Positions 1-10,710 of a DNA stretch of 32,000 bases are shown one piece after another. Location: the NCBI GenBank assembly GCA_048938295.1, contig JBHLMI010000004.1, forward strand, positions 1 through 32,000, given 5' to 3'. Each line of letters opens with the position of its first letter. The stretch's first letter is position 1. This stretch comes from Promethearchaeota archaeon (GTDB lineage Archaea; Asgardarchaeota; Hermodarchaeia; Hermodarchaeales; Hermodarchaeaceae). Below the pieces are notes generated by a model. That model was not told the origin of the DNA. It was given only the letters and a program-made list of their open reading frames with translations, and did not search any database. Made by a program: the position numbers and the translations under genes.

Positions 1-86
1 CCCATTCGACTTTCATTAGTCACGGTAGTATTAATTTCAACTAATTTACGTAATAGGTTGAGTTCATATGCAAGTTCTTCTTCCAT
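1..86 (-). CDS. N-terminal fragment of a host gene running off the window, probably M20 (ArgE/DapE-like) metallopeptidase
   Basis: Manual translation MEEELAYELNLLRKLVEINTTVTNESRMG...; ATG at 86 preceded by SD GGAGGT; LLRKLVEINT resembles the M20 N-terminal helix. Only 28 codons visible. Confidence 0.5.
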   Translation of the reverse strand, partial: MEEELAYELNLLRKLVEINTTVTNESRM

Positions 87-129
87 GACCTGCTGACCTC
101 CAGATGTATCTGCAGTAACGGAGTCGGTA

Positions 130-138
130 AAAGCCTAC
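130..138 (+). repeat. attL core (AAAGCCTAC)
   Basis: Identical to 8523-8531; 6-bp spacer AAAGCC preceded by host arm TCGGTA (124-129). Confidence 0.75.
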
Positions 139-160
139 AACTACCATATTTGATACAGGT

Positions 161-211
161 AGTATCGGTAGGTATTGCAACGTTTTTGTGAGAAATAGTG
201 AAGTATCGGTA
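161..211 (+). repeat. Direct repeat AGTATCGGTA (161-170, 202-211), copies of the att arm sequence
   Basis: GTATCGGTAGG (162-172) is the exact reverse complement of CCTACCGATAC (8527-8537) at attR. Confidence 0.65.
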
Positions 212-217
212 TTTAAG
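210..217 (+). promoter_or_regulatory. Probable TATA box (TATTTAAG) of the element's left operon
   Basis: About 28 nt upstream of ATG 245, consistent with a leaderless archaeal transcript. Confidence 0.5.
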
Positions 218-244
218 AACGCGTTCGAATAAACTAGTACCACT

Positions 245-508
245 ATGCAAACGGCAACGCGAAGAATTGTAGGCATCGGTAATAGCCGCGGTATCACCTT
301 CCCACACGATTGCAAACACCTCGTAGACGACTCCGTTCATCTCCTCTACAATGAACGTTTCATATTAATTCTCCGGCAAGACCAAAGTCATCTCTTGGAA
401 CCAGCGGTTGGACAAATCGTGCAGGAAGCCATTACTCAGATCGTGCAGGATTCACTGAACCAGGAGTGTGTACACCTTGACTCGACAGGTGAAAACCCAA
501 CCGGCTAA
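245..508 (+). CDS. AbrB/MazE/SpoVT-like DNA-binding protein
   Basis: N-terminal IVGIGNSRGITFP matches the AbrB-fold GNSxxIxxP motif. Confidence 0.7.
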   Translation: MQTATRRIVGIGNSRGITFPHDCKHLVDDSVHLLYNERFILILRQDQSHLLEPAVGQIVQEAITQIVQDSLNQECVHLDSTGENPTG

Positions 509-728
509 GGTGCCTAGGGTTGCTGTGTGGTTACCCAGAGAACTCTGGCAGACGCTGATTCCCTTTCTGACCAGCCAGATCGATCAAGTGCAATCGAATC
601 TTGTGCGAGGCCGGTTGAACCACCGGATTGTGCGCCACCTCGAGAATCTGGAGCTCATTGACCGGTTGCAGGCCATTGAGAATGCGCTCCGAACCCAATT
701 CTATGCTGCGAGGAGGGATGACGGATGA
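468..728 (+). CDS. Small protein, possibly ribbon-helix-helix DNA-binding (true start may be GTG 489 or 510)
   Basis: RVAVWLPRELWQTL resembles an RHH strand-helix; its stop overlaps the next ATG (ATGA). Confidence 0.5.
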   Translation: MYTLTRQVKTQPAKVPRVAVWLPRELWQTLIPFLTSQIDQVQSNLVRGRLNHRIVRHLENLELIDRLQAIENALRTQFYAARRDDG

Positions 729-1480
729 GCGATGAGGAGACGCCGCGAAAAGTTGGTAACGAAATTGTGACAAAGGGAGATTGTAACGATATTGTTACGA
801 TTGAAGCTCTCTGTAGAGCTGTGTATGAAGCGAGAGCGGTAACACCACCTTGTAACATTACCACAACCACCACCACAACCCACCACCACCAGGAAGAAAC
901 GAATGGTCACGATATTGTTACAAGCTTGCCGGTGCATTTAGCCTTCAAACTCTGCACGGATCCAGTGTTGTATCGGCTCTACCATGGAAAAGCGGCCAAG
1001 GAAGCCGCAGCCGTCTTATCATATTTCACACTGTACCGAGCCGCTGCCACCATTCACAGCTTAGGCATCTTGGATGATAAGATTCGTGATGGCATTTTCG
1101 CGGAACGTGAAGAGGTGCACCGGGTCATGAGGAAGCTTGAACGACTCGGGCTTGTCACGATATCGTTACATAAACCGTTTCAGGGTGGCCGTGACTTCGC
1201 CCTGTTCACTGCGGTCTGGGCTACTAGCGCTGATGTGCAGATGGCTCTCGAAGAGCATAACAGTTGGCTTGAACGGCACAAAGACACGGGTCTCCCTGCT
1301 CAGATTCCGGATGAACAAGCCTTGATCGGTGCCTCATTACCTGAGCCATCTGAAGTGGAATTACGCCAAGAGCGCTTACAAAGGATTGCCTACTACGAAT
1401 CCCGGTATCACCTCAGCGATGCGGATCAGCAGGTACTAGCCCGCCTCAAGAAACAGGTCGAGGAGGTGGATCTGAAATGA
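725..1480 (+). CDS. Winged-HTH protein, candidate replication initiator/regulator of the element
   Basis: EEVHRVMRKLERLGLV is a typical wHTH recognition helix/wing; low-complexity Thr/His linker; translationally coupled. Confidence 0.55.
   Translation: MSDEETPRKVGNEIVTKGDCNDIVTIEALCRAVYEARAVTPPCNITTTTTTTHHHQEETNGHDIVTSLPVHLAFKLCTDPVLYRLYHGKAAKEAAAVLSYFTLYRAAATIHSLGILDDKIRDGIFAEREEVHRVMRKLERLGLVTISLHKPFQGGRDFALFTAVWATSADVQMALEEHNSWLERHKDTGLPAQIPDEQALIGASLPEPSEVELRQERLQRIAYYESRYHLSDADQQVLARLKKQVEEVDLK
756..1169. repeat. Four copies of a 16-bp quasi-palindrome GT[AC]AC-GA[AT]AT[TC]-GT[TG]AC
   Basis: Copies at 756-771, 783-798, 906-921 and 1154-1169, all inside the wHTH gene. Confidence 0.8.
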
Positions 1481-1541
1481 AACAGATACCTCATGACCGA
1501 ACCACTCCACCAACCACTTGTAAAGGAGATAATCAATAAGA

Positions 1542-2408
1542 ATGCCAATCGATTTCAATGATCCCCGAATAAAAGTAAAGGAACTTCGAGGCGAAGGCAA
1601 TCTCAAACAAGAGTACTGGTATTATTGGATTGAAATGGATCATGCCCATTTCTCCTGTAAACCAGATGGAACCGTCATTAATGAGTATCTGCAGGTTCCT
1701 TTCAGCCAGCGCCTCACTAAGAAGCAAATTCAACGATTCAGCATGTTTGAGTACTGGCCAGGCATTACCAATCCCGTGGATTTGGATCCAGATATCATAA
1801 TTGAGGCTGAACTTGAGCATTACCTCGAGAAGATTTGTCGGTTCCGTCTCACTGACTGGCTCTCCTATTTCAAGGATCACTGGGAGGTTTATTATCGAAC
1901 AATCCAAGAACTCTATGAACTGGTCTACGGTGTTCCCTGCGACCATCATCCAATTATCAGCCCGAAGGAGTATATCCTTCAGAAAGCTCAAAGTGAACTC
2001 CCTTCGGAGGAATTTCGAATCTTCAATCTCTGGGCCACTGGGTCTCAGCAACAGCAAATAGCCGAACAACTCAAGAAGAGCATCGGCTACGTGAACACCC
2101 GGCTCCGCCGAATCCGTGAGGGCCCGATGGGCTTCTGGTATGAGGACTTTGTGAAAGGCGAAGGTCACAGGTCGGGTCACGGTGAACCAGATTTCATCGC
2201 CAAGGATGGTGTCCCCGTGAACCTGAAATGTGTGGGTGACAAACGAACCAGTAAAATTAAACGTGATAAACTGGCCCCAGAAATCATGTATGCGAAGACT
2301 CATACCGCGAGTGTCCGAGTTCAAGTCTACAACATTGTGCATGACCAAGAGCAGGTCCTCGAGTTTCCGCCCTTGGAAATCCCCATCGAAGTCCAGGTAA
2401 ACTGGTGA
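1542..2408 (+). CDS. Sigma70-r4/LuxR-like HTH fused to a PD-(D/E)xK-like nuclease domain
   Basis: EFRIFNLWATGSQQQQIAEQLKKSIGYVNTRLRRIR (HTH, aa ~157-192), then E201, PD216-217 and NLK227-229; SD AAGGAG upstream. Confidence 0.6.
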   Translation: MPIDFNDPRIKVKELRGEGNLKQEYWYYWIEMDHAHFSCKPDGTVINEYLQVPFSQRLTKKQIQRFSMFEYWPGITNPVDLDPDIIIEAELEHYLEKICRFRLTDWLSYFKDHWEVYYRTIQELYELVYGVPCDHHPIISPKEYILQKAQSELPSEEFRIFNLWATGSQQQQIAEQLKKSIGYVNTRLRRIREGPMGFWYEDFVKGEGHRSGHGEPDFIAKDGVPVNLKCVGDKRTSKIKRDKLAPEIMYAKTHTASVRVQVYNIVHDQEQVLEFPPLEIPIEVQVNW

Positions 2409-2556
2409 AAATAATTTTCTTTCAGATTCTTAGGAAAAATGATGATGAAAAATAAAATCGAAAAAGAACCCCTTTCTCATGACGCGGAGTGCTGGTGAGG
2501 AACCGAAAAACGGAATAGTTTTATTTTCTGTGAGCTGTTTGTTTTCTAATTCACAT

Positions 2557-2708
2557 CGGAGGTGAAGGAATGTCATTAGAACGCACACCAGATGAAGTGA
2601 TAGCTGAAATTTCAGACACTCTTTATCAAATGCTTAGGGTAATGCAGGAAATCAGAGATCTTCTAAGGCGACTATAGAATTGCGGAGGTGAAGGAATGTC
2701 ATTAGAAC
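2557..2708 (+). repeat. Exact 26-bp direct repeat CGGAGGTGAAGGAATGTCATTAGAAC (2557-2582, 2683-2708)
   Basis: Each copy contains SD GGAGGTGA plus ATG plus the first codons of a micro-ORF. Confidence 0.9.
2570..2677 (+). CDS. 35-aa amphipathic/coiled-coil micro-protein (MSLERTPDEVIAEISDTLYQMLRVMQEIRDLLRRL)
   Basis: Strong SD GGAGGTGA; paralog immediately downstream; below the ORF-track length cutoff. Confidence 0.7.
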   Translation: MSLERTPDEVIAEISDTLYQMLRVMQEIRDLLRRL

Positions 2709-2818
2709 CTACAACACAAGTTGAAATCTTACTCTCAGAAATCTCGACGAAACTAAGTGAGGTGATCGAAGAGAGCCGCAGGTTGTACACACTCCTAGAC
2801 ATGCGAGTTGGAGACTAA
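2696..2818 (+). CDS. 40-aa amphipathic/coiled-coil micro-protein (MSLEPTTQVEILLSEISTKLSEVIEESRRLYTLLDMRVGD)
   Basis: Same SD/start cassette; shares MSLE and EISxxL with the previous ORF. Confidence 0.7.
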   Translation: MSLEPTTQVEILLSEISTKLSEVIEESRRLYTLLDMRVGD

Positions 2819-2867
2819 CCAAACACCCACAAGTCTGGGGTTTTTCTTCAGCTTACGATGATTGATT

Positions 2868-3626
2868 TTACTTAGGTTTTTGGAAGCTTTGGTCACCTAT
2901 CTTGAATATTGGGCTGTGAAGCTCTTGTTCATTCCCAAATATTTGCCATGCTTCCTTTGTGAATATGAATTTAAACCTAAATAAAGTGCCCTTAATCTCT
3001 TCCAAGTTGATTGGTGGTCCTTTTGGTTTTAATGATTTATATTCAAGATGTTTTATATCGTCAATTTCTTTGATTCTCAAAGCAACATACACATAACTAG
3101 CACTCTTGGGCGATAAAGGAAGGCTTCTCAACCTCCACATCGGTCCTTGTGGAGGATTCAAGTAGGATTCAATGCTTTGCTCTGGGTCCCAATCCGTGAA
3201 CCGTTTATTTTCGAAGAAGTCTATTTTGATGTATTTAAGAACACCATGAGTTGAACCTCTATTTTCCACTACAAACTCATATTGGGCATCGAATTCATGA
3301 GAGCTAATTGGAACGGGTTTGCTGGAATGTCGAATAAACAAGATCTGCCATGATGCACCTGGCATTTTACGAACGAATCCGTACAGTTGAATACTAAATG
3401 GAAATAATGCAATAAGGATTCCAATAAGACTAAGAATCACTGGGAGACTGATTGGCAAATCACGAGCAAGTTGAAATATAAACCATATGATTATAGCAAG
3501 AAAAGGGCAATAGAAAGCCGCTGCAAACAAAATTGCTGCAATTCGTGCTCTCGGATGAGCATGAATTGGTTGCTTCTTCTCTTCTTCGGTTGATTCCCTT
3601 CTCTTTGCATCCGCCAAAAAAATCAC
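2868..3626 (-). CDS. Hypothetical membrane protein (2 N-terminal TM helices plus soluble beta-rich domain)
   Basis: 252-aa ORF in AT-rich cargo; hydrophobic segments at aa ~28-82. Confidence 0.7.
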   Translation of the reverse strand: MIFLADAKRRESTEEEKKQPIHAHPRARIAAILFAAAFYCPFLAIIIWFIFQLARDLPISLPVILSLIGILIALFPFSIQLYGFVRKMPGASWQILFIRHSSKPVPISSHEFDAQYEFVVENRGSTHGVLKYIKIDFFENKRFTDWDPEQSIESYLNPPQGPMWRLRSLPLSPKSASYVYVALRIKEIDDIKHLEYKSLKPKGPPINLEEIKGTLFRFKFIFTKEAWQIFGNEQELHSPIFKIGDQSFQKPK

Positions 3627-3689
3627 TTCTAAATATTGTTATTTTTCTTGAATAAAAAGAGCTAGTCTTGAGATTTCTGGTAGCGAGTA

Positions 3690-4064
3690 TTATCTAGAGA
3701 GTACAGTATATGCTAACAACATGAAACCCACAGCTATGATCTGGAACCATATCCAGGCTATATTCAATAATATGAAGGAATATACAAAATTAACGTTAAG
3801 CATTATCATAAGAGAACCAGCCCCAACCAAGAGGCCAGATAAGGTTACAATAATGTATAAAGTGGCAAATTCAACAAATGTGCGCTGATATTCTTTGAGC
3901 ATAGTCTCTGTCTCAGTAGTGTCGGAACTATGCAAACGAGCTAGTTCAAAGAATATTGTGTCTAATGTCTTCATTTGATATCCAATCAAAACGCCAGAAA
4001 ACCCCAAAAGGATTCCTTTAGCTGATATTAGAATACCTAGAGCCTGTGGAAAAACAAGCAACAA
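3690..4064 (-). CDS. Hypothetical multi-pass membrane protein (frame stays open upstream to 4313)
   Basis: Several hydrophobic helices; in-frame upstream sequence encodes another TM-like helix RIWIPIILGILIFAAISS. Confidence 0.6.
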   Translation of the reverse strand: MLLVFPQALGILISAKGILLGFSGVLIGYQMKTLDTIFFELARLHSSDTTETETMLKEYQRTFVEFATLYIIVTLSGLLVGAGSLMIMLNVNFVYSFILLNIAWIWFQIIAVGFMLLAYTVLSR

Positions 4065-4335
4065 TCTGAAGGCTTGATCTGGCGTTAATGGGCTCCCAGG
4101 AGAAAATAATTCGATTATCGAATTGAAATTAAATATTGAAGATATGGCAGCAAAAATTAGAATACCTAATATGATTGGAATCCAAATTCTAGTAAATTTG
4201 TTTAAGATAATTCCCTCGATTATACTTTGGCTAAAACAGGTATATGTTATTACCGATTTTGCGGTTAGAATTCTGGAGCTTCCATAACCAGCTATTTTAT
4301 AAATAAAGTGATTTTACTTCAATCTATCAAGGAAG

Positions 4336-4845
4336 GTGATGGTTTTGCAGTTAGAATATATCTTACTGATTAACACATTAATTCAGATATTAGTAGAAGC
4401 TGCGGGTGGCATCATAGCTGGTATTGTAGCAGCAATATTTGCTGTCTATTTCACGAAGCGGTGGGAGAAGAAAGCTCGGATTGAAGCATATCGAAAGAGA
4501 CTAGTTTCGGAGATTGAGCTATTCCAAAAAGCTTGTCACGTTTTCGATGAGTCTGGACGAGGAACAGATCAAGCCGACGTTGTTAAGAACTTAGCCCTTC
4601 AAACCGCTCAACGCACAAGGGACACATTTACGCCTGAAACAATGGACAAATTTCCTTGGGATCTTCTGTGGCCATTCATCGATGAATTGATTCGTTTAGC
4701 AATCTTGGGTTTTGGCGAAATGAAATGGTTTCTTGATCAGGTAAGAAAATTAGAGCAAATGGCTGATGAGATTATTAAAAGACTCAATGTTATCAGAAGC
4801 GCTACTGTAAAAAGAAGAGAACCGGAACCCCAAGGCCCCGGATAG
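4336..4845 (+). CDS. Hypothetical N-terminally membrane-anchored helical protein
   Basis: 169 aa; TM segment followed by basic KRWEKKAR; SD AAGGAAGGTG overlapping the start. Confidence 0.7.
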   Translation: MMVLQLEYILLINTLIQILVEAAGGIIAGIVAAIFAVYFTKRWEKKARIEAYRKRLVSEIELFQKACHVFDESGRGTDQADVVKNLALQTAQRTRDTFTPETMDKFPWDLLWPFIDELIRLAILGFGEMKWFLDQVRKLEQMADEIIKRLNVIRSATVKRREPEPQGPG

Positions 4846-4884
4846 GTGTTGCAGAACCCAAGTTATGAAACAGGAAGAGAGAAC

Positions 4885-5157
4885 CTACCCTAATTCTTTG
4901 ATGCGCTGCCAGTTCTCGCGAGCCCATTCAAAGTCTGGGAATCGTTCCCGCGTGTACAAGTCGGTAATGCGCTGTCCAACAGCTGTCTTGATTTCGTGAG
5001 TGATGGCTCGCACTTCTTCCCGGAAATCTGACAGGCTCAACTCTTTGTTGTCCTTGTTCTCTATGAGAAAGTCAGCTAACTCGTCAAGGAAGAGGTTGAT
5101 CCCATCTTGAACAGCGCAAAGCCACTTGGTATCCATTGGAAAACTCCTAGTTCCCAT
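4885..5157 (-). CDS. Small hypothetical helical protein (likely start ATG 5157 or 5136)
   Basis: C-terminal ~83-90 aa of the tracked ORF look globular and amphipathic; the upstream part overlaps the neighbouring gene. Confidence 0.5.
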   Translation of the reverse strand: MGTRSFPMDTKWLCAVQDGINLFLDELADFLIENKDNKELSLSDFREEVRAITHEIKTAVGQRITDLYTRERFPDFEWARENWQRIKELG

Positions 5158-5246
5158 GAACAACACCTTGGAACCGAGAATGCAATTTTTCACTAAAGTG
5201 GAAAAAAAGGAAGAGTGAGAAGGCGTAAGCCCTCTCAGAAATATGT

Positions 5247-6251
5247 CTATATTGGTGGAGCTGGGTAAAGCGGGGTACAGTAGGTGGCAAAACATATCCA
5301 CCACCAGTTCGGAGTTCGGCAATAACGGTTATAGCCTCCTCCAAGGGCGAAATTGATGAGATCCACTGGTATGAACTGATCAATAGAACCATCAGGATTC
5401 GCGTCTAGTTCCCTAATACGTGAAATCCCTAGAAAGAACCCTCCGATGAGTATACCCACAACTCCGCCAATTGGACCTGAAATCCAAATAGCCAGTATGA
5501 CACTTATTACAAGCAAAATGAGCGTCTCAAGAAATCTCAAGTCTTGTTGAAGCATCAGATAGACATCGTATGCAGTGTAGTGTATGTGTAAAGCGTTAGG
5601 ATTGTAGAGTAGATATGGGGTCCATCCAATATTTATGCCCTCAGACCAAGTCCAAGCCATGGCTACGAGGGGTTTCTGTGGTTGGAGAATTTTTTCTGGT
5701 CCATCTGCATTAATGAAATCTTCGACTAAGGTTCTAGGAATTTCTCCAATATGGAAATACGACCAACACATTGTCAGAATAAATGCAGCTACATCAGCAT
5801 CGATAATCGTTGGAAACCCGACTACGATTTTACTTGTTATAGTGTAGGCAGCAGGAGCAGAAAAACACGCTGCAAAGTAATGTTCACCACTAGGAGAAGC
5901 CTCTATGATTTCTGTTATTTCATCCCAACACACTAGTGTCGATCCTATCGTTAATCCCGCTTCTATGCCATGCCCGACATAGAATATCTCTCCAATCGCT
6001 TTTCGTAATATTAGTTCAAATTGGACCTTATCATCTATTCTTAGATGCTTCGAATTAGGAATGTTATGTTCTAATTGAACGGTGGAGGCCTTAATTGCCA
6101 CGTCATCACCAAAGGAAAGAATTAATGGTCCTGTTATAGGAATGCCTTGGCCGAACACCGTTGGTAAGGCAAATAATGTTGTGCAAAAAGTTGTCACTAG
6201 GAATATTACGAAGACCTTTTTCTGTAAATGAGACATTAAACTAACTTCCAA
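5247..6251 (-). CDS. Secreted protein: signal peptide + caspase-hemoglobinase-fold (clan CD) His/Cys peptidase + hydrophobic glycine-zipper C-terminal region
   Basis: Signal-like aa 6-35; IFYVGHG (H94) and HYFAACFS (C129); IVVGF strand; TM/Gly zipper at aa 244-276 (GPIGGVVGILIGGFFLG). Confidence 0.65.
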   Translation of the reverse strand: MEVSLMSHLQKKVFVIFLVTTFCTTLFALPTVFGQGIPITGPLILSFGDDVAIKASTVQLEHNIPNSKHLRIDDKVQFELILRKAIGEIFYVGHGIEAGLTIGSTLVCWDEITEIIEASPSGEHYFAACFSAPAAYTITSKIVVGFPTIIDADVAAFILTMCWSYFHIGEIPRTLVEDFINADGPEKILQPQKPLVAMAWTWSEGINIGWTPYLLYNPNALHIHYTAYDVYLMLQQDLRFLETLILLVISVILAIWISGPIGGVVGILIGGFFLGISRIRELDANPDGSIDQFIPVDLINFALGGGYNRYCRTPNWWWICFATYCTPLYPAPPI

Positions 6252-6719
6252 TCAGGTAATTTCCGTTATTCTTAGAGCCGAGAATTTGCTGAGACCGAAT
6301 ACGATGAGAAACAAAGATGTTGTTGCTAGTACGACAGAGAGAATCGAAACTATTATTTCATAAGGGCTAACCAGAAATAACCAGCATAAGATACCTGTAA
6401 GAAGGGTACCACCCGGAATGAATAAACCTGCACCTAGACCTCTGCCTTGGCTATTATTGAAGTCGAAATAAAAAATCAGAATACCTGTTATGGATACTAT
6501 CAAAAAGAAGGAGGGAAGAACTAGAAACGCAAAGAATCCAAGTAAAATCGCTGTGAACAAGACAATAAATATCCCAATAGGGAAGAAATATGTTTTTGTC
6601 ACTAATCTGAAAGCCTGATACCAACGTGTATTCTGATTTTGTCGAAAGAACAAGTAAGCAAAGGTGCTCGCCGAAATAATCAAGATTAGATATATTAGTT
6701 CAGTTAACCAATCTGTCAT
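6252..6719 (-). CDS. Small polytopic membrane protein (4-5 TM), candidate immunity protein
   Basis: 155 aa, almost entirely hydrophobic; SD GGAGG; stop abuts the start of the secreted protease gene. Confidence 0.7.
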   Translation of the reverse strand: MTDWLTELIYLILIISASTFAYLFFRQNQNTRWYQAFRLVTKTYFFPIGIFIVLFTAILLGFFAFLVLPSFFLIVSITGILIFYFDFNNSQGRGLGAGLFIPGGTLLTGILCWLFLVSPYEIIVSILSVVLATTSLFLIVFGLSKFSALRITEIT

Positions 6720-6732
6720 TAAACCAATCCTC

Positions 6733-6816
6733 CATTCGAAATATCGAATGACTCGAACTAAAGAGTGATAATTCGAATGACTCCAACTATAATTTGCTAC
6801 CCTCAGAACTTAAATA
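6733..6816 (-). promoter_or_regulatory. Promoter with operator-like repeats for the 6719-5247 operon
   Basis: Minus-strand TATA TATTTAAG (6816-6809); 17-bp direct repeat TCGAATGACTC[G/C]AACTA (6744-6760, 6773-6789); inverted repeat CATTCGA-N4-TCGAATG (6733-6750). Confidence 0.55.
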
Positions 6817-6914
6817 TTCTCCTACTTTCAAGAAATTAAAATAATATGAACATTTTATCATCCTCACCGGGACTAGTACGGCAAGTCTAAGTGAGATAAG
6901 ATAAGGGCAATATC

Positions 6915-7097
6915 TTATTTGAGCACCTCTTCTTTGACAATGGTGAGGAAGCACTTGGTTGATCAGTAGCTCCGATAGACCTTCCCTGACGGCACGCTTA
7001 TGTGATATCCAGCCTCATAGATGATGCCCCTCCCACATTCATCGCATTGCATCTCATACATTTGAGCCAAGGGTTCCTCGGATTTTTGTGCCACCAT
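6915..7097 (-). CDS. 60-codon TRASH/MYM-like Zn-finger gene with in-frame TGA at the third Cys position (selenoprotein or pseudogene)
   Basis: MVAQKSEEPLAQMYEMQCDECGRGIIYEAGYHISVPSGKVYRSY*STKCFLTIVKEEVLK; strong SD GGTGGTGA; TGA at 6965-6963. Confidence 0.65.
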
Positions 7098-7133
7098 TTT
7101 ATCACCACCTTTCAGTTGTAAGTTGCTTACAGC

Positions 7134-8465
7134 CTACGTTTTCCTTTTCTTTTTCAGACGTTTCTCTATAAGCGCTGCCAACTGATCAAGCTCAGTTTCA
7201 CTCAATTCTTCCAAGCGTTGTGTTACGAACTCCTGGGTTTTAGGATCCTCTGCCAATGCAAGCAAGAGTCGGCGCATCTCAGGGTTTTCGTCGATTTGCT
7301 TCAATGTGGGAACAGCTCGCTCCTGATCTTCGAGCACTTCCTTTAATCGGGTTCGTTCCTGTTGGAGTTCATCGATTAACGGTTGTATCTCTCCACGAAT
7401 CCTCCCTTCAATGGCTTCAAGATCATAGCCTTCAGGAACCGCAAGAATCCGGGTGAACCCGTTCTCATAGAGGTGACGTACACTTTTGAATAGCTGGTCA
7501 ATGGTAGGTTTCGCGTAAGCCCCATTGTAGGGCACGCTGTGGGCCATGAGAATTTGTTTATGTGTATAACCACCAGGGTTATGATCCAGCTGAGTGCCAA
7601 ACCAACTCCGCAGCGCTCGCAACGATAACGGATTCTCACGCTGATCAGGGAACACCTTCTTCCCCAGCCGCCGCAACATTGCCCCAGCTGCGTTCTTGGT
7701 GAGCTTGCGTTCCTGTTCGTTCGGTTTCTCAACGAAAAGGTAGCTTTCAGGGGTGAGATCGCTTCGCGTTTTGAGATAGCGATCCAAGTGCTGCAAAGCT
7801 TCCGGGGTTATCCAGCTGATCATTTCAATACCGGTCTTTTGGCGTGGCTGATCAGGATCGTGGATGAAACCCCAATTTGGAAACTTACCTCGATCAATAT
7901 CACCGAGTTTGAGCTCTAGCAGATCAGATGAGCTACGACCGGTTGTGGCCGCAACGAAGATTAAGGCCTTAGCACGAACATCTGCGTATTCAAGGACTTT
8001 CGCGATTTCACCGGTGGTCAGGCCACCAGCCACCTGGCGCTGTGATCGTGTGAACCGGTGAAGCTGGGGAAGTGACACGTCATAATGCCGATAGAAGCTC
8101 TTGATACAGCCCACCATGCGGCTAATCGTGCGGCGGGTCTTCTTAGTGAATGGTTTTTCCCCTTGCGCGTAAGGCCCTTGGTCAAACACTAACACATGCT
8201 CAGGATGATCCTTGAGCAGCCATTGCCGGAAATGTTCGAGTCGATGTCGCCCGCTGAGTGACGAATCACGATTGAGCACCGGTTGCTGGCGGTAAGCCTG
8301 TTCATCTTCAATCAGCTGCTTCGGTGTTCGCTTGGTAAAGGCACAAAAGTAGAGCAAGGACAGGCTGTAACTCGGTGCGGTTCCCGGTGAAACGGTGGTC
8401 AACCAATCCACAACAAGGGAATCCTGTTCGAAGGACGCGCGGTTATGCCTGGAAATACGTGGCAT
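7134..8465 (-). CDS. int: Tyrosine recombinase/integrase with C-terminal coiled-coil extension
   Basis: N-terminal SAM-like domain; TTGRSSSDL box I, K210, RALR(283-286), H309, Y317; charged helical tail. Confidence 0.88.
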   Translation of the reverse strand: MPRISRHNRASFEQDSLVVDWLTTVSPGTAPSYSLSLLYFCAFTKRTPKQLIEDEQAYRQQPVLNRDSSLSGRHRLEHFRQWLLKDHPEHVLVFDQGPYAQGEKPFTKKTRRTISRMVGCIKSFYRHYDVSLPQLHRFTRSQRQVAGGLTTGEIAKVLEYADVRAKALIFVAATTGRSSSDLLELKLGDIDRGKFPNWGFIHDPDQPRQKTGIEMISWITPEALQHLDRYLKTRSDLTPESYLFVEKPNEQERKLTKNAAGAMLRRLGKKVFPDQRENPLSLRALRSWFGTQLDHNPGGYTHKQILMAHSVPYNGAYAKPTIDQLFKSVRHLYENGFTRILAVPEGYDLEAIEGRIRGEIQPLIDELQQERTRLKEVLEDQERAVPTLKQIDENPEMRRLLLALAEDPKTQEFVTQRLEELSETELDQLAALIEKRLKKKRKT

Positions 8466-8522
8466 AGTACGTACTCGTTCGAACTCGCATAAATATATTT
8501 CCTAACAAATCTGTTAGAAGTC

Positions 8523-8531
8523 AAAGCCTAC
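8523..8531 (+). repeat. attR core (AAAGCCTAC)
   Basis: Identical to 130-138; followed by host arm TACCGATACCT. Confidence 0.75.
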
Positions 8532-8573
8532 CGATACCTCAGCATTTTCCATCGGTAACGTTATTTTTGCGAA

Positions 8574-9056
8574 ATGCCAAGGTTAGTCCAAAAAAGAAAG
8601 ATTGCGAGAATACCGACAATGATTGATAAGCAAACTTCACGGAGACGGCTATATGGATTTATACTCTTTAGCATCCTCGAAGAAACGATTATTGCAGTCA
8701 TTGCTTTTATGCTACTATTAGTATTTCTCCCCTCTTTTCTCATCTCAGGAATAATTATTGTAGCGATCGCCCTGATCCTGTTCAGCTTAGTTAAAATTTA
8801 TACATATTGGTCATCTTCGAGAATTCCTATTTACGATCCTTTGATTGGCCAAGAGGGAATAGCGATTACGGAATTTGAGATTGGAATAGATAAACACTGG
8901 CTAGGAAAGGTCATTGTTCGAGGAGAAACATGGAAAGCCCAATCTTCAGAAGTAATTGCAAAAAATGCTCGAATATGGGTCCATGGAATCAGTGGATTAT
9001 CGCTTCTGGTTAAGACAACGCCATTCGAGCCAGAAGAAACCAAGAGCCGCTCCTAA
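8574..9056 (+). CDS. NfeD-like protein (TM helices plus C-terminal OB fold)
   Basis: LIGQEGIAIT...GKVIVRGETWKA...GLSLLV is the NfeD C-terminal signature. Confidence 0.85.
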   Translation: MPRLVQKRKIARIPTMIDKQTSRRRLYGFILFSILEETIIAVIAFMLLLVFLPSFLISGIIIVAIALILFSLVKIYTYWSSSRIPIYDPLIGQEGIAITEFEIGIDKHWLGKVIVRGETWKAQSSEVIAKNARIWVHGISGLSLLVKTTPFEPEETKSRS

Positions 9057-9658
9057 GGGGTCATCGAATTGTTCCGCATCTGCCTTTGGGCGAAGGCGCG
9101 ATCTAAGGCTTGGTTGGCTAGTCTCAGAAAAGCATTAGATACTCCGATGGCAGTTGCTGCTGAAGTTTCAAAATAAGGGATGCTCCACCATCGTTGTAAC
9201 ATTTGCGCTGCTTCAGGTGGAACCATTCGTTTTTCCGCGAGATCTACTTTATTCCCGATAAGAATAACCGCCCCTTGGGGAACAATGCGCCGAAAGTCAT
9301 TATACCAATTCCATAAGGTCATAAAGGAACTGGGTTCGGACACATCGAAAACGAGTAGGGCTCCATGGGCACCGCTGTAATAGTGCCTGCGGACTTGTCG
9401 AAAAGAAGGTTGACCAGCAACATCCCAAATCACCAGCTTCACTTTTTGTTGTTTTATTTCCAAATCTTTGACAGCGAAACTAGCGCCAAGGGATTGCTTG
9501 TATTCGGGTGAGAAAGTGTTTTGGGTATAACGCAGAACCAACGAAGTTTTGCCTACGGCTCCATCGCCCATCATGACTATCTTTATACCGAAATCTGTGG
9601 GCCTGTCTATGAATCGTTCGTGGACATCAGTGGGAGCCAGCTTCTCTGACACGGTCAC
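9053..9658 (-). CDS. Rab-like small GTPase (Ras superfamily)
   Basis: G1 GDGAVGKTS, G3 WDVAGQ, G4 GNKVD, G5 ETSA; RabF-like KLVIWD, YYSGA, LVFDVS; no prenylation Cys. Confidence 0.92.
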   Translation of the reverse strand: MTVSEKLAPTDVHERFIDRPTDFGIKIVMMGDGAVGKTSLVLRYTQNTFSPEYKQSLGASFAVKDLEIKQQKVKLVIWDVAGQPSFRQVRRHYYSGAHGALLVFDVSEPSSFMTLWNWYNDFRRIVPQGAVILIGNKVDLAEKRMVPPEAAQMLQRWWSIPYFETSAATAIGVSNAFLRLANQALDRAFAQRQMRNNSMTP

Positions 9659-9762
9659 CCTTTCCCAGGTTGGTGCCTAAGCTGTAGTTGCCAAAAAGAT
9701 GCATAAAGGTTTCGTTTCAGAATATAGATGTTTTACTAAATTGTTGGAAATTGAGTGAATTC

Positions 9763-10710
9763 TCAGAACACGAATGGAATAGGAATTCCTAAGGAGACCA
9801 CCATGAATAAGCCAATCCCAATGGGAACAAGTGCACAAATCATCGGAACTGGTAAGCCCGGGATCGCTCTATTGGGATAGCGCGCAACGATTTGGGTGTT
9901 TAAGAGACAGCCAATGGTGATGGCAACGAAAGCCAAACCTGAGAAAAACCAGCCCAGATATCGGAAGGCATAGGCGACAAGTGCAGCATAAACAATGAGA
10001 TCTCCCACACCCATCACTAAAGGCCCGATTACGAAAGTAAAGGCGGTTCGGACATGATGTTTTCGATCTGCCTCAATCATTGTAGGTCCAAGGCGAATGG
10101 CAAAAAAAGTATCCTGTGCTGCAAGAATAAGAAGGATAGCTAATGAGATTACCCATGTAAAATTCACAGCTAAAAACACTCCAAGAATGATCCCATATCC
10201 AGCAAACAAAATATTGCGTGCCAATTCTCCGAGAGCGTCGGTAAAGATGAAAACGATTGAGAAAGCTGAAAACATGATGGATGCAAGAGCAAGCAGTGAT
10301 AAATGCAGAAAACTTAGTCCCTGAAAGAGGAGTAATAGAAAAATCGCCTGACCAATAAAGACCGTGAGAATGAAAAAGAGGGGAGAAACAAAGGCAGCAA
10401 TTAGGATTCGATGAACTCTCTCGCTACCCCGTTGAAATATAAGGAATGTGAAAAAAGTCGCTAAACCACCTGTAAAGCCAATGACAAACAGAACTAACAG
10501 GGTTTGAAACACATCCATTGTAGGGGGGAAAATGCCTGGTTGCAGAAGAGGGTTTGCAAGTATCACCAGATAAGCGATTAAAAGAGAAAAGACCATTGAG
10601 AATATGGGTAGAGTAATGTAATAAAGGCGTTCGCGCCAACTCAATCGAACCTTTACTTGATCCATCTCAAATTGTCCCTGCTTTCCTTCCGCAATTGACT
10701 GGGCATTCAT
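9763..10710 (-). CDS. Presenilin/signal-peptide-peptidase family (A22) intramembrane aspartyl protease
   Basis: About 9 TM helices; QD (YD-equivalent), GVGD (GxGD) and PGLP (PAL-equivalent) motifs. Confidence 0.85.
   Translation of the reverse strand: MNAQSIAEGKQGQFEMDQVKVRLSWRERLYYITLPIFSMVFSLLIAYLVILANPLLQPGIFPPTMDVFQTLLVLFVIGFTGGLATFFTFLIFQRGSERVHRILIAAFVSPLFFILTVFIGQAIFLLLLFQGLSFLHLSLLALASIMFSAFSIVFIFTDALGELARNILFAGYGIILGVFLAVNFTWVISLAILLILAAQDTFFAIRLGPTMIEADRKHHVRTAFTFVIGPLVMGVGDLIVYAALVAYAFRYLGWFFSGLAFVAITIGCLLNTQIVARYPNRAIPGLPVPMICALVPIGIGLFMVVSLGIPIPFVF

Follow-up and report, generated by a model that had tools for sequence, protein, structure and literature searches.

The stretch of DNA analysed here (the window) covers the opening 32 kb of contig C33 in a metagenome-assembled genome (MAG) of a Hermodarchaeota (Asgard) archaeon, genome G000, which comprises 2.5 Mb in 66 contigs. 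The window opens with the 5' end of a host gene for an M20-family peptidase (1..87, minus strand, start codon 87..85), which continues on contig C23. Further on, at 8574..9056 on the plus strand, lies a host gene for an NfeD-like membrane protein (Pfam PF01957, E 1.2e-10), whose true start is possibly the ATG at 8619. These two genes adjoin each other in relatives. Here they are held apart by an 8.4-kb block, which is very probably a site-specific integrative element equipped with its own recombinase. Two copies of a 9-bp identity block, AAAGCCTAC, border it at 130-138 and 8523-8531, where an earlier interpretation made from the DNA letters (the sequence-only reading) had placed them, and there is no third copy in the window. 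The unique DNA of the element amounts to 8,384 bp (139-8522), with a repeat period of 8,393 bp including one core copy.

The element would be laid out in three parts: a conserved DNA-binding module, a swappable low-G+C block of genes for membrane and secreted proteins, and the integrase gene. The latter, at 7134..8465 on the minus strand, encodes a tyrosine recombinase of 443 residues (PF00589) made of a core-binding domain, a catalytic domain and a helical tail. Its open reading frame (ORF) is intact in the integrated state, and 58 bp separate its start codon from the recombination core upstream.

Empty sites in related genomes

Taken alone, the 9-bp repeat is close to chance level and is a weak proof of insertion, because AAAGCCTAC occurs 30 times in the 2.5-Mb genome and many 9-mer pairs arise by chance in any 32 kb. 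The M20 protein was sought in 40 relatives, and NfeD, a small GTPase and a presenilin-like protein were then looked for beside it. M20 orthologues were 68-93% identical to ours. In 11 relatives (G001, G003, G006, G007, G011, G012, G013, G014, G015, G017 and G018) the M20 and NfeD genes are directly adjacent and divergent, with a short spacer between them, and the gene order is membrane protein, GTPase, NfeD, then divergent M20. In G001, the closest relative, whose M20 is 93% identical to ours, the spacer is the sequence obtained by joining the outer flanks of our element, save for a few substitutions. Since 11 relatives display the direct adjacency and the G001 spacer equals the reconstructed empty site, the insertion and both its boundaries can be taken as exact. 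The sequence-only reading had predicted an insertion with this empty site and had proposed M20/NfeD adjacency in relatives as a check; both expectations were borne out.

One could assume instead that nothing was inserted, and that the block is ancestral, was lost in the relatives and is bordered by the 9-bp repeat by chance. Such repeats are indeed common in 32 kb, as the 30 genomic copies illustrate. But the 11 relatives would then need independent deletions at identical bases; moreover, the integrase gene adjoins one of the repeats, and in G008, another genome of the genus, this position is taken by a different element. An ancestral block, to which we attach practically no probability, thus appears effectively refuted by the empty sites of the relatives.

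Attachment sites and proposed recombination core

On the left, the host half-site B of attB, CGGAGTCGGTA (119..129), which is conserved in genus relatives, is followed by the attL copy of AAAGCCTAC (130..138), whose first six bases (130-135, AAAGCC) are the proposed overlap or spacer, and by the element-side half-site P', TACAACTACCA (136..146). On the right, the element-side half-site P, TGTTAGAAGTC (8512..8522), precedes the attR copy of AAAGCCTAC (8523..8531) and the host half-site B' of attB, TACCGATACCT (8529..8539). Once reconstructed, attB has arms complementary at 8 of 11 positions, with the spacer AAAGCC between a perfect TCGGTA/TACCGA, and the attP arms are complementary at 7 of 11; these counts agree with those of the sequence-only reading.

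We wrote the B, B', P and P' half-sites of G000 and G008 towards the spacer. The eight sequences have a common consensus, TGKTAKNNGTA, in which G9 and T10 occur in all eight arms and G2 and A5 in seven. This common consensus supports a putative core of two 11-bp arms around a 6-bp spacer (11-6-11) and suggests that one protein could read all four arms. Inverted half-sites and an overlap of 6-8 bp present as a direct repeat, which define a tyrosine recombinase core site, are both found here. The extra TAC in the G000 repeat corresponds to the bases where P' and B' agree.

We propose that the recombinase would bind four related 11-bp half-sites, B and B' on the chromosome and P and P' on the element. 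Strand exchange would take place across the 6-bp spacer AAAGCC, as for Xer, Cre and Flp at simple 11-6-11 or 13-8-13 cores. Integration would leave the spacer, with here three fortuitously common bases, as a direct repeat, and excision would restore the host palindrome together with a circular element of 8,393 bp with one core. The 8.4-kb element would be excisable, as the sequence-only reading had supposed.

Three solitary extra half-sites of the B' type, G(T/C)ATCGGTA, are found on the plus strand at 162-170, 203-211 and 273-281, in the region (160..281) between the core and an AbrB-like gene. Across the genome this motif is no more frequent than background (18 observed, about 20 expected), which makes chance an unlikely explanation for two exact copies within 80 bp of the core. 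These extra half-sites may be candidate accessory recombinase sites or operators. At the other end, an inverted repeat, CTAACA-AATC-TGTTAG (8502-8517), directly borders the P arm on its outer side, in the interval that separates the core from the start of the integrase gene, and is partly kept at the G008 element end.

Elements at the same site in other genomes

Related elements occupy the M20-NfeD site in no fewer than two further genomes or metagenomes. When 5.8 billion proteins were searched through a word index, one close homologue of the integrase emerged, P0002, which is 72% identical and is encoded on a 49.9-kb metagenome contig from ENA (ERZ23498365) between NfeD and M20. The spacings there are 150 bp from the NfeD start to the integrase start, against 153 bp here (counted from the ATG at 8619), and 158 bp from the last element gene to the M20 start, against 157 bp here. 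The cargo of the P0002 element differs in part and includes, for example, a membrane protein resembling lysyl-phosphatidylglycerol synthase. A Logan contig of 7,709 bp from SRR10072857 consists of a P0002-type element alone, as one element unit.

In G008, the M20 contig reads TATCGGTA-AAAGGC-AACAACTAACA and ends 64 nt further on, and the NfeD contig begins 40 nt ahead of TGTTAGGAGTC-AAAGGC-TACCGATGC (contigs G008:C89/C260). We read these two contig ends as the left and right junctions, attL and attR, of a related element. On the element side, its arms match ours at 10 of 11 positions for P and 9 of 11 for P', and the duplication is exactly the 6-bp spacer, AAAGGC, a variant also present in the empty sites of the clade to which G008 belongs. 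No integrase was found in the G008 MAG.

In de Bruijn assembly of a sample that contains both filled and empty sites, two flanking contigs overlap by no more than the recombination core. The M20 contig of G009 ends with CGGTAAAAGCC and its NfeD contig starts with AAAGCCTACCGATACC, both exactly on AAAGCC (G009:C145/C144), which fits, indirectly, a population where filled and empty sites are mixed. The contig ends of G009, the 6-bp-only duplication in G008 and the XerA-like integrase described below all bear out the Xer/Cre-like 11-6-11 core that the sequence-only reading had put forward.

Exact junction patterns were present only in G000 and G008 among 15 genomes of the genus. Matches to attL or attR with one mismatch elsewhere in the genus had no element genes nearby, and we attribute them to chance because their count was near expectation in a first search and a reversed control also matched in a second one.

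The target palindrome

The centre of attB, GGTAAAAGCCTACCGA, is conserved at 15 or more of its 16 positions in 9 of 11 genus genomes, the rest of the spacer drifting; G012 lacks the left arm and G013 the right one. The site is single-copy, conserved across the genus and located in the promoter region, 35-60 bp upstream of the M20 start. The corresponding M20-NfeD spacer of the sister genus is devoid of the palindromic site. No tRNA gene was found in the 32-kb window, and the target is thus intergenic and distinct from a tRNA, as the sequence-only reading had held. Its contrast with archaeal integrases that target tRNA genes carries less weight, since intergenic targets are not unusual for archaeal integrases: 15 of 68 integrated mobile genetic elements (iMGEs) of Thaumarchaeota lie in intergenic regions (PMC6563490), and psiM100 also integrates in an intergenic region (PMC8371274).

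At dif, inverted repeats of 11 nt flank a 6-nt spacer, and the DNA is cleaved where the spacer begins and ends (PMC8371274, PMC2958812). One may wonder whether the palindrome is a dif-type site of the host XerA, which would take part in the reaction or even perform it. The 11-6-11 shape, the single copy, the conservation across the genus, the XerA-like character of the element integrase and the presence of one host XerA gene all go in this direction. Yet the element has its own intact recombinase, whose lineage co-occurs with the site in P0002 too, and the P and P' arms have the same half-site consensus as B and B'. The symmetry of attB is only 7-9 of 11, and the loss of one arm in G012 and G013 would be unexpected for an essential dif. 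The location in a promoter region, the absence of the site from the sister-genus spacer and the background frequency of the arm motif TACCGATAC also speak against a dif-type site, which we consider very improbable. Palindromes of 11-6-11 form were also sought across the whole genome; the 38 matches were unremarkable, and the host dif was not identified among them.

Integrative mobile elements exploiting Xer (IMEX) have no recombinase of their own and are integrated at the host dif by the host Xer. The element does not belong with them, as its recombinase is encoded beside the attachment site. We also rejected the possibility that the integrase is itself the chromosomal XerA, a host-encoded orthologue of some 280-320 residues that occurs singly, recurs in relatives and acts at dif: the only other tyrosine recombinase of the host is XerA, a separate gene (313-residue frame, C32:33535-34023, E 2.4e-48), and the element integrase, of 443 residues, was found in none of 18 same-family genomes.

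The integrase

The integrase comprises an N-terminal core-binding domain, a catalytic domain and, from about residue 349, a long helical C-terminal tail. It passes the Pfam cut-off of PF00589 (Phage_integrase) narrowly, with 29.9 bits against 27.1, which places it in the superfamily, and it matches integrase families of the PHROG collection. A profile of its clade gave archaeal XerA as the best match (5HXY, E 1.3e-35; 4A8E, E 1.2e-30). The AlphaFold model, with a predicted local distance difference test (pLDDT) score of 78.7, has XerA, Cre and XerH as best folds in Foldseek (probability 1.00).

An exhaustive search of 1.8 billion cluster representatives returned 387 relatives, but only the cluster of the integrase itself fell below 1e-30 and the next best was 35% identical. 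Among 50,697 GenBank phage records, the sole match was psiM100 (25% identity over 72% of the protein, E 6e-6). The lineage was found neither in the 18 same-family genomes nor in 400 Asgard genomes besides this one, and back-translated integrase patterns had no match in GTDB genome contigs, IMG/VR or JGI metagenomes.

The sequence alignment of the clade shows conservation of K210, R286, H309 and Y317, with R283 at the His-II position. SSV-type elements, in which attP lies within the integrase ORF and splits it, were rejected as a model, since the ORF is unsplit here and attP is outside it.

Conserved module and cargo

The module opens with a gene (245..508, plus strand) for an 87-residue protein whose N-terminal motif, GNSxGITxP, is AbrB/MazE-like. 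This protein has no Pfam match, and its AbrB-like fold is suggested at the level of the motif. The next gene (468..728, plus strand) encodes an 86-residue protein, followed by a winged-helix-like DNA-binding protein of 251 residues (725..1480, plus strand) and by a 288-residue protein (1542..2408, plus strand) which we regard as the hallmark of the family. The latter has a variable N-terminus, a helix-turn-helix (HTH) resembling sigma-70 region 4 and a C-terminal domain of about 95 residues that is very conserved and shows an E...PD...NxK pattern. A profile search with this domain alone gave no Pfam or PDB match, and the AlphaFold model of the protein is poor (pLDDT 60, below 50 in the C-terminal domain). 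To read the domain as nuclease-like would be a motif-level guess.

Six homologues of the 288-residue protein were found, and the contig DNA was read for two of them. L027 is a 7,569-bp JGI contig of 60% G+C, which would be a 7.44-kb circle because its ends overlap by 127 bp; L028 is a 6,263-bp contig of the NCBI MAG GCA_016550385.1. Both possess the module of AbrB-like, small and winged-helix proteins: the 87-residue protein has homologues in both, the 86-residue protein is 51% identical to its L028 homologue and matches L027 more weakly, and the 251-residue protein has a partial homologue in L028 (none was found for it among the 5.8 billion proteins). The last 360 nt or so of the 288-residue gene (window 2046-2408) share 73-78% of their nucleotides between elements that are unrelated elsewhere (L027, L028, L038 and L039), including the circle of 60% G+C. 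In L027 and L028, a different integrase with a zinc ribbon is encoded divergently and adjoins the AbrB-like gene, which is the layout that would be expected of our element after excision. The module thus appears to define a small family of circular or integrative elements of 6-8 kb with exchangeable integrases and cargo, and it probably handles regulation together with maintenance or replication.

The 251-residue gene also holds four 16-bp palindromes, GTNACGATATNGTNAC, at 756-771, 783-798, 906-921 and 1154-1169. They seem to be conserved at the DNA level because the fourth one is in another reading frame. They are absent from L027 and L028, which neither backs nor refutes the idea of an iteron origin.

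Among the 400 Asgard genomes the family was found in this genus only, and there only as stand-alone genes for the C-terminal domain. A scan of GTDB with the hallmark protein likewise returned two stand-alone genes for the 95-residue domain, in G008 and G013, whose contexts are host-like and which we did not retain as elements. No member was found in GenBank phages, PLSDB plasmids or IMG/VR, and the same scan of JGI metagenomes was also empty.

Two micro-ORFs of 35 and 40 residues (2570..2818, plus strand) lie behind a repeated 34-nt unit with a Shine-Dalgarno sequence and a start. Two genes for membrane proteins of 252 and 124 residues (2868..4064, minus strand; G+C 0.37-0.38) have no family matches and form variable cargo. 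They are followed by a gene for a 169-residue protein with an N-terminal hydrophobic segment (4336..4845, plus strand) and by three co-oriented cargo genes without family matches (4885..6719, minus strand), encoding a polytopic membrane protein of 155 residues, a protein of 334 residues whose N-terminus is signal-like and whose C-terminal part has a hydrophobic stretch, and a soluble protein of 145 residues. A micro-ORF of 44 residues with a Cys pair, ending in TGA, precedes the integrase gene (6963..7097, minus strand); the sequence-only reading had raised the possibility of read-through or selenocysteine for it. The G+C content of the cargo is 0.36-0.42, against about 0.45-0.47 in the flanks. 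A promoter and terminator scan was uninformative, its models being bacterial and the host archaeal.

Capsid, packaging ATPase, replicase, partition and conjugation genes were not recognised with Pfam and PHROGs. The integrase, the attachment repeats, the empty site and the absence of such hallmarks, as judged from Pfam and PHROGs only, are those of a cryptic integrated or integrative plasmid-like element, and it is in this class that the element is best placed.

This membrane-protein block nevertheless raises the question of a virus. The element could be the provirus of a small membrane-containing archaeal virus, pleomorphic or spindle-like, with the proteins encoded at 2868-6719 as virion components. 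Hydrophobic segments are present in 5 of the 11 larger ORFs, including the 334-residue protein with its signal-like N-terminus and anchor-like C-terminal stretch, a size of 6-8 kb fits small archaeal viruses, and circular relatives exist. In addition, nine complete circular Asgard mobile genetic elements (MGEs) in which no capsid protein could be recognised have been put forward as potential novel viruses (PMC13700489). On the other hand, no hallmark of a virus, neither a capsid nor a packaging or morphogenesis ATPase, was found in PHROG or Pfam; there were no virion-morphogenesis matches and no relatives in IMG/VR or GenBank phages. The membrane-protein block is not common to the second element or to L027 and L028, which fits cargo better than structural genes. 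Overall, we consider a provirus unlikely. The element had been called non-viral in the sequence-only reading; this agrees with the lack of Pfam and PHROG hallmarks, with which a novel membrane-containing virus would also be compatible. Its other suggestion, an undescribed family of MGEs, is plausible for the family, for which no relatives were found in the phage, plasmid, IMG/VR and PHROG collections, and not for the kind of element, which is known.

Discussion

Although the relatives' empty sites and the repeated use of the site make a self-encoded integrative element very probable, a number of observations weigh against it. One of them concerns catalysis. The canonical Arg-I position of the integrase is held by S178, with R177 one residue earlier (T-G-R177-S, compared with G-V-R in XerA), and most relatives of the clade also have no Arg at this position (G-L-A/S). 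Activity of the integrase is thus not to be assumed, because the first catalytic Arg is displaced. Neither a replication protein nor a partition system nor an excisionase was recognised with Pfam and PHROGs. The symmetry of the attP arms (7/11) is modest, and the extra half-sites are absent from the 64 nt of the G008 element that can be read. The junctions of the P0002 element are inferred from gene coordinates only, and in the assembled sequence of its own sample neither a circular junction nor an empty site was seen for the 8.4-kb element. Finally, the contig break at window 1-77 is off the core and uninformative on excision.

On this basis, one could imagine that the element is a fixed and immobile remnant, vertically inherited or decaying. 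The displaced Arg and the lack of a recognised excisionase would be explained in this way, as would the single copy and the absence of a circular form in this assembly. Several facts are difficult to reconcile with such a remnant. None of the larger ORFs is interrupted, and the two cores do not differ from each other. The element is absent from G001, the closest relative, so that the insertion is recent. The T-G-R-S motif is kept in the 72%-identical P0002 integrase, which argues for selection, and the contig ends of G009 point to ongoing polymorphism of the site in a sister population. We thus hold a remnant to be quite improbable and retain a site-specific integrative element with its own recombinase.

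A parallel can be drawn with the iMGEs of Atabeyarchaeia, an Asgard group from which integrated as well as circular elements of small size have been described that encode tyrosine integrases and use short attachment motifs (Valentin-Alvarado et al. 2024, PMC11529989). Like the plasmid-like Yucahu-i and the 7.8-kb iMGE-xvi, our element is small and combines a tyrosine integrase with a short motif (11 bp in Atabeyarchaeia), HTH proteins are encoded beside the integrase and most genes are unannotated; many of the Atabeyarchaeia iMGEs coexist as circles. It differs from them by its host class, Hermodarchaeia, by a separate integrase lineage, by the lack of a recognised superfamily 3 (SF3) helicase or other replicase and by its target, a conserved dif-shaped palindrome in a divergent promoter. 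The cryptic integrated elements (CIE) of Thaumarchaeota (Krupovic et al. 2019, PMC6563490), from 2.6 kb up, also associate an integrase and attachment repeats with no hallmark of a virus, plasmid conjugation or casposon. However, they belong to another phylum and have no detected genes in common with our element, whose family is defined by a four-gene DNA-binding module and includes a circular member.

Concerning the recombination system, the closest profile and fold are those of archaeal XerA/dif from Pyrococcus and Thermoplasma (4A8E, 5HXY; PMC2958812, PMC8371274) and of Cre/loxP, which also have no separate arm-binding domain; XerA/dif further shares a core of two 11-bp inverted half-sites around a 6-bp spacer. 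In contrast to XerA, our integrase has 443 residues with a long helical tail, a displaced first Arg and Arg283 at the His-II position, and by inference it would act between two different sites (attP and attB). The Methanothermobacter prophage psiM100 resembles our element by a remote integrase similarity and by intergenic integration, but it is a 31-kb tailed virus. The so-called suicidal integrases of SSV type are likewise tyrosine integrases of archaeal MGEs, but their attP lies inside the integrase ORF and the gene is split (PMC7253208), whereas the gene is intact here.

The family of small elements was previously uncatalogued. Its kind is well known in archaea: cryptic, plasmid-like integrative elements whose integrase is simple and of the Xer/Cre-like type. 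A far-reaching hypothesis would be that it is the first recognised episome family associated with Hermodarchaeia, a class whose mobilome would otherwise be invisible for want of CRISPR, that its integrase clade works without the canonical first Arg, that it targets the conserved promoter palindrome in such a way that integration and excision rewire the expression of M20 and NfeD, and that the protein joining an HTH to the 95-residue domain is a new type of replication or resolution protein. That all these propositions hold jointly is, in our opinion, distinctly doubtful.

Hermodarchaeia have been reported to lack CRISPR-Cas (PMC13700489), so that hosts cannot be linked to elements by spacers in this class. 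Integrated elements with exact junctions are therefore the only firm host assignments. In this genome we found neither a second copy of the element nor a spacer-like match. The locus gives a defined attB, attP arms and a recombinase. As an integration system that is simple, Cre-like and native to an Asgard archaeon, it might serve as a tool, and the 288-residue protein is a marker for finding related episomes. It also illustrates cleanly how a conserved palindrome in a promoter can be a hot spot for integration; for the rest, this is an ordinary kind of mobile element.

Neighbouring genes and assembly breaks

Contig C23 overlaps window 1-77 by 77 bp, which is the k-mer of the assembler. We do not take this overlap as a sign of excision, as it represents an assembly-graph junction away from the core. 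Assemblies break at or within about 130 bp of the M20-NfeD locus in 5 of 15 genomes of the genus. Two contigs, G004:C161 and G005:C30, end inside M20 at about codon 22, within the stretch of the 77-bp overlap between C23 and C33.

G002 had been a candidate for a further carrier and was discarded, because the gene between its M20 and NfeD genes is unrelated and not an element. This gene, for an 804-residue protein with tetratricopeptide repeats (TPR) and a carbon-nitrogen-hydrolase-like part, fills the M20-NfeD interval (L037, G002:C68:3300-6700), from which the palindromic site is absent.

The right flank of our element (9053-10710) encodes, beside NfeD, a small Arf/Ras-like GTPase (9053-9658) and a presenilin-like polytopic membrane protein, an order that is found genus-wide.

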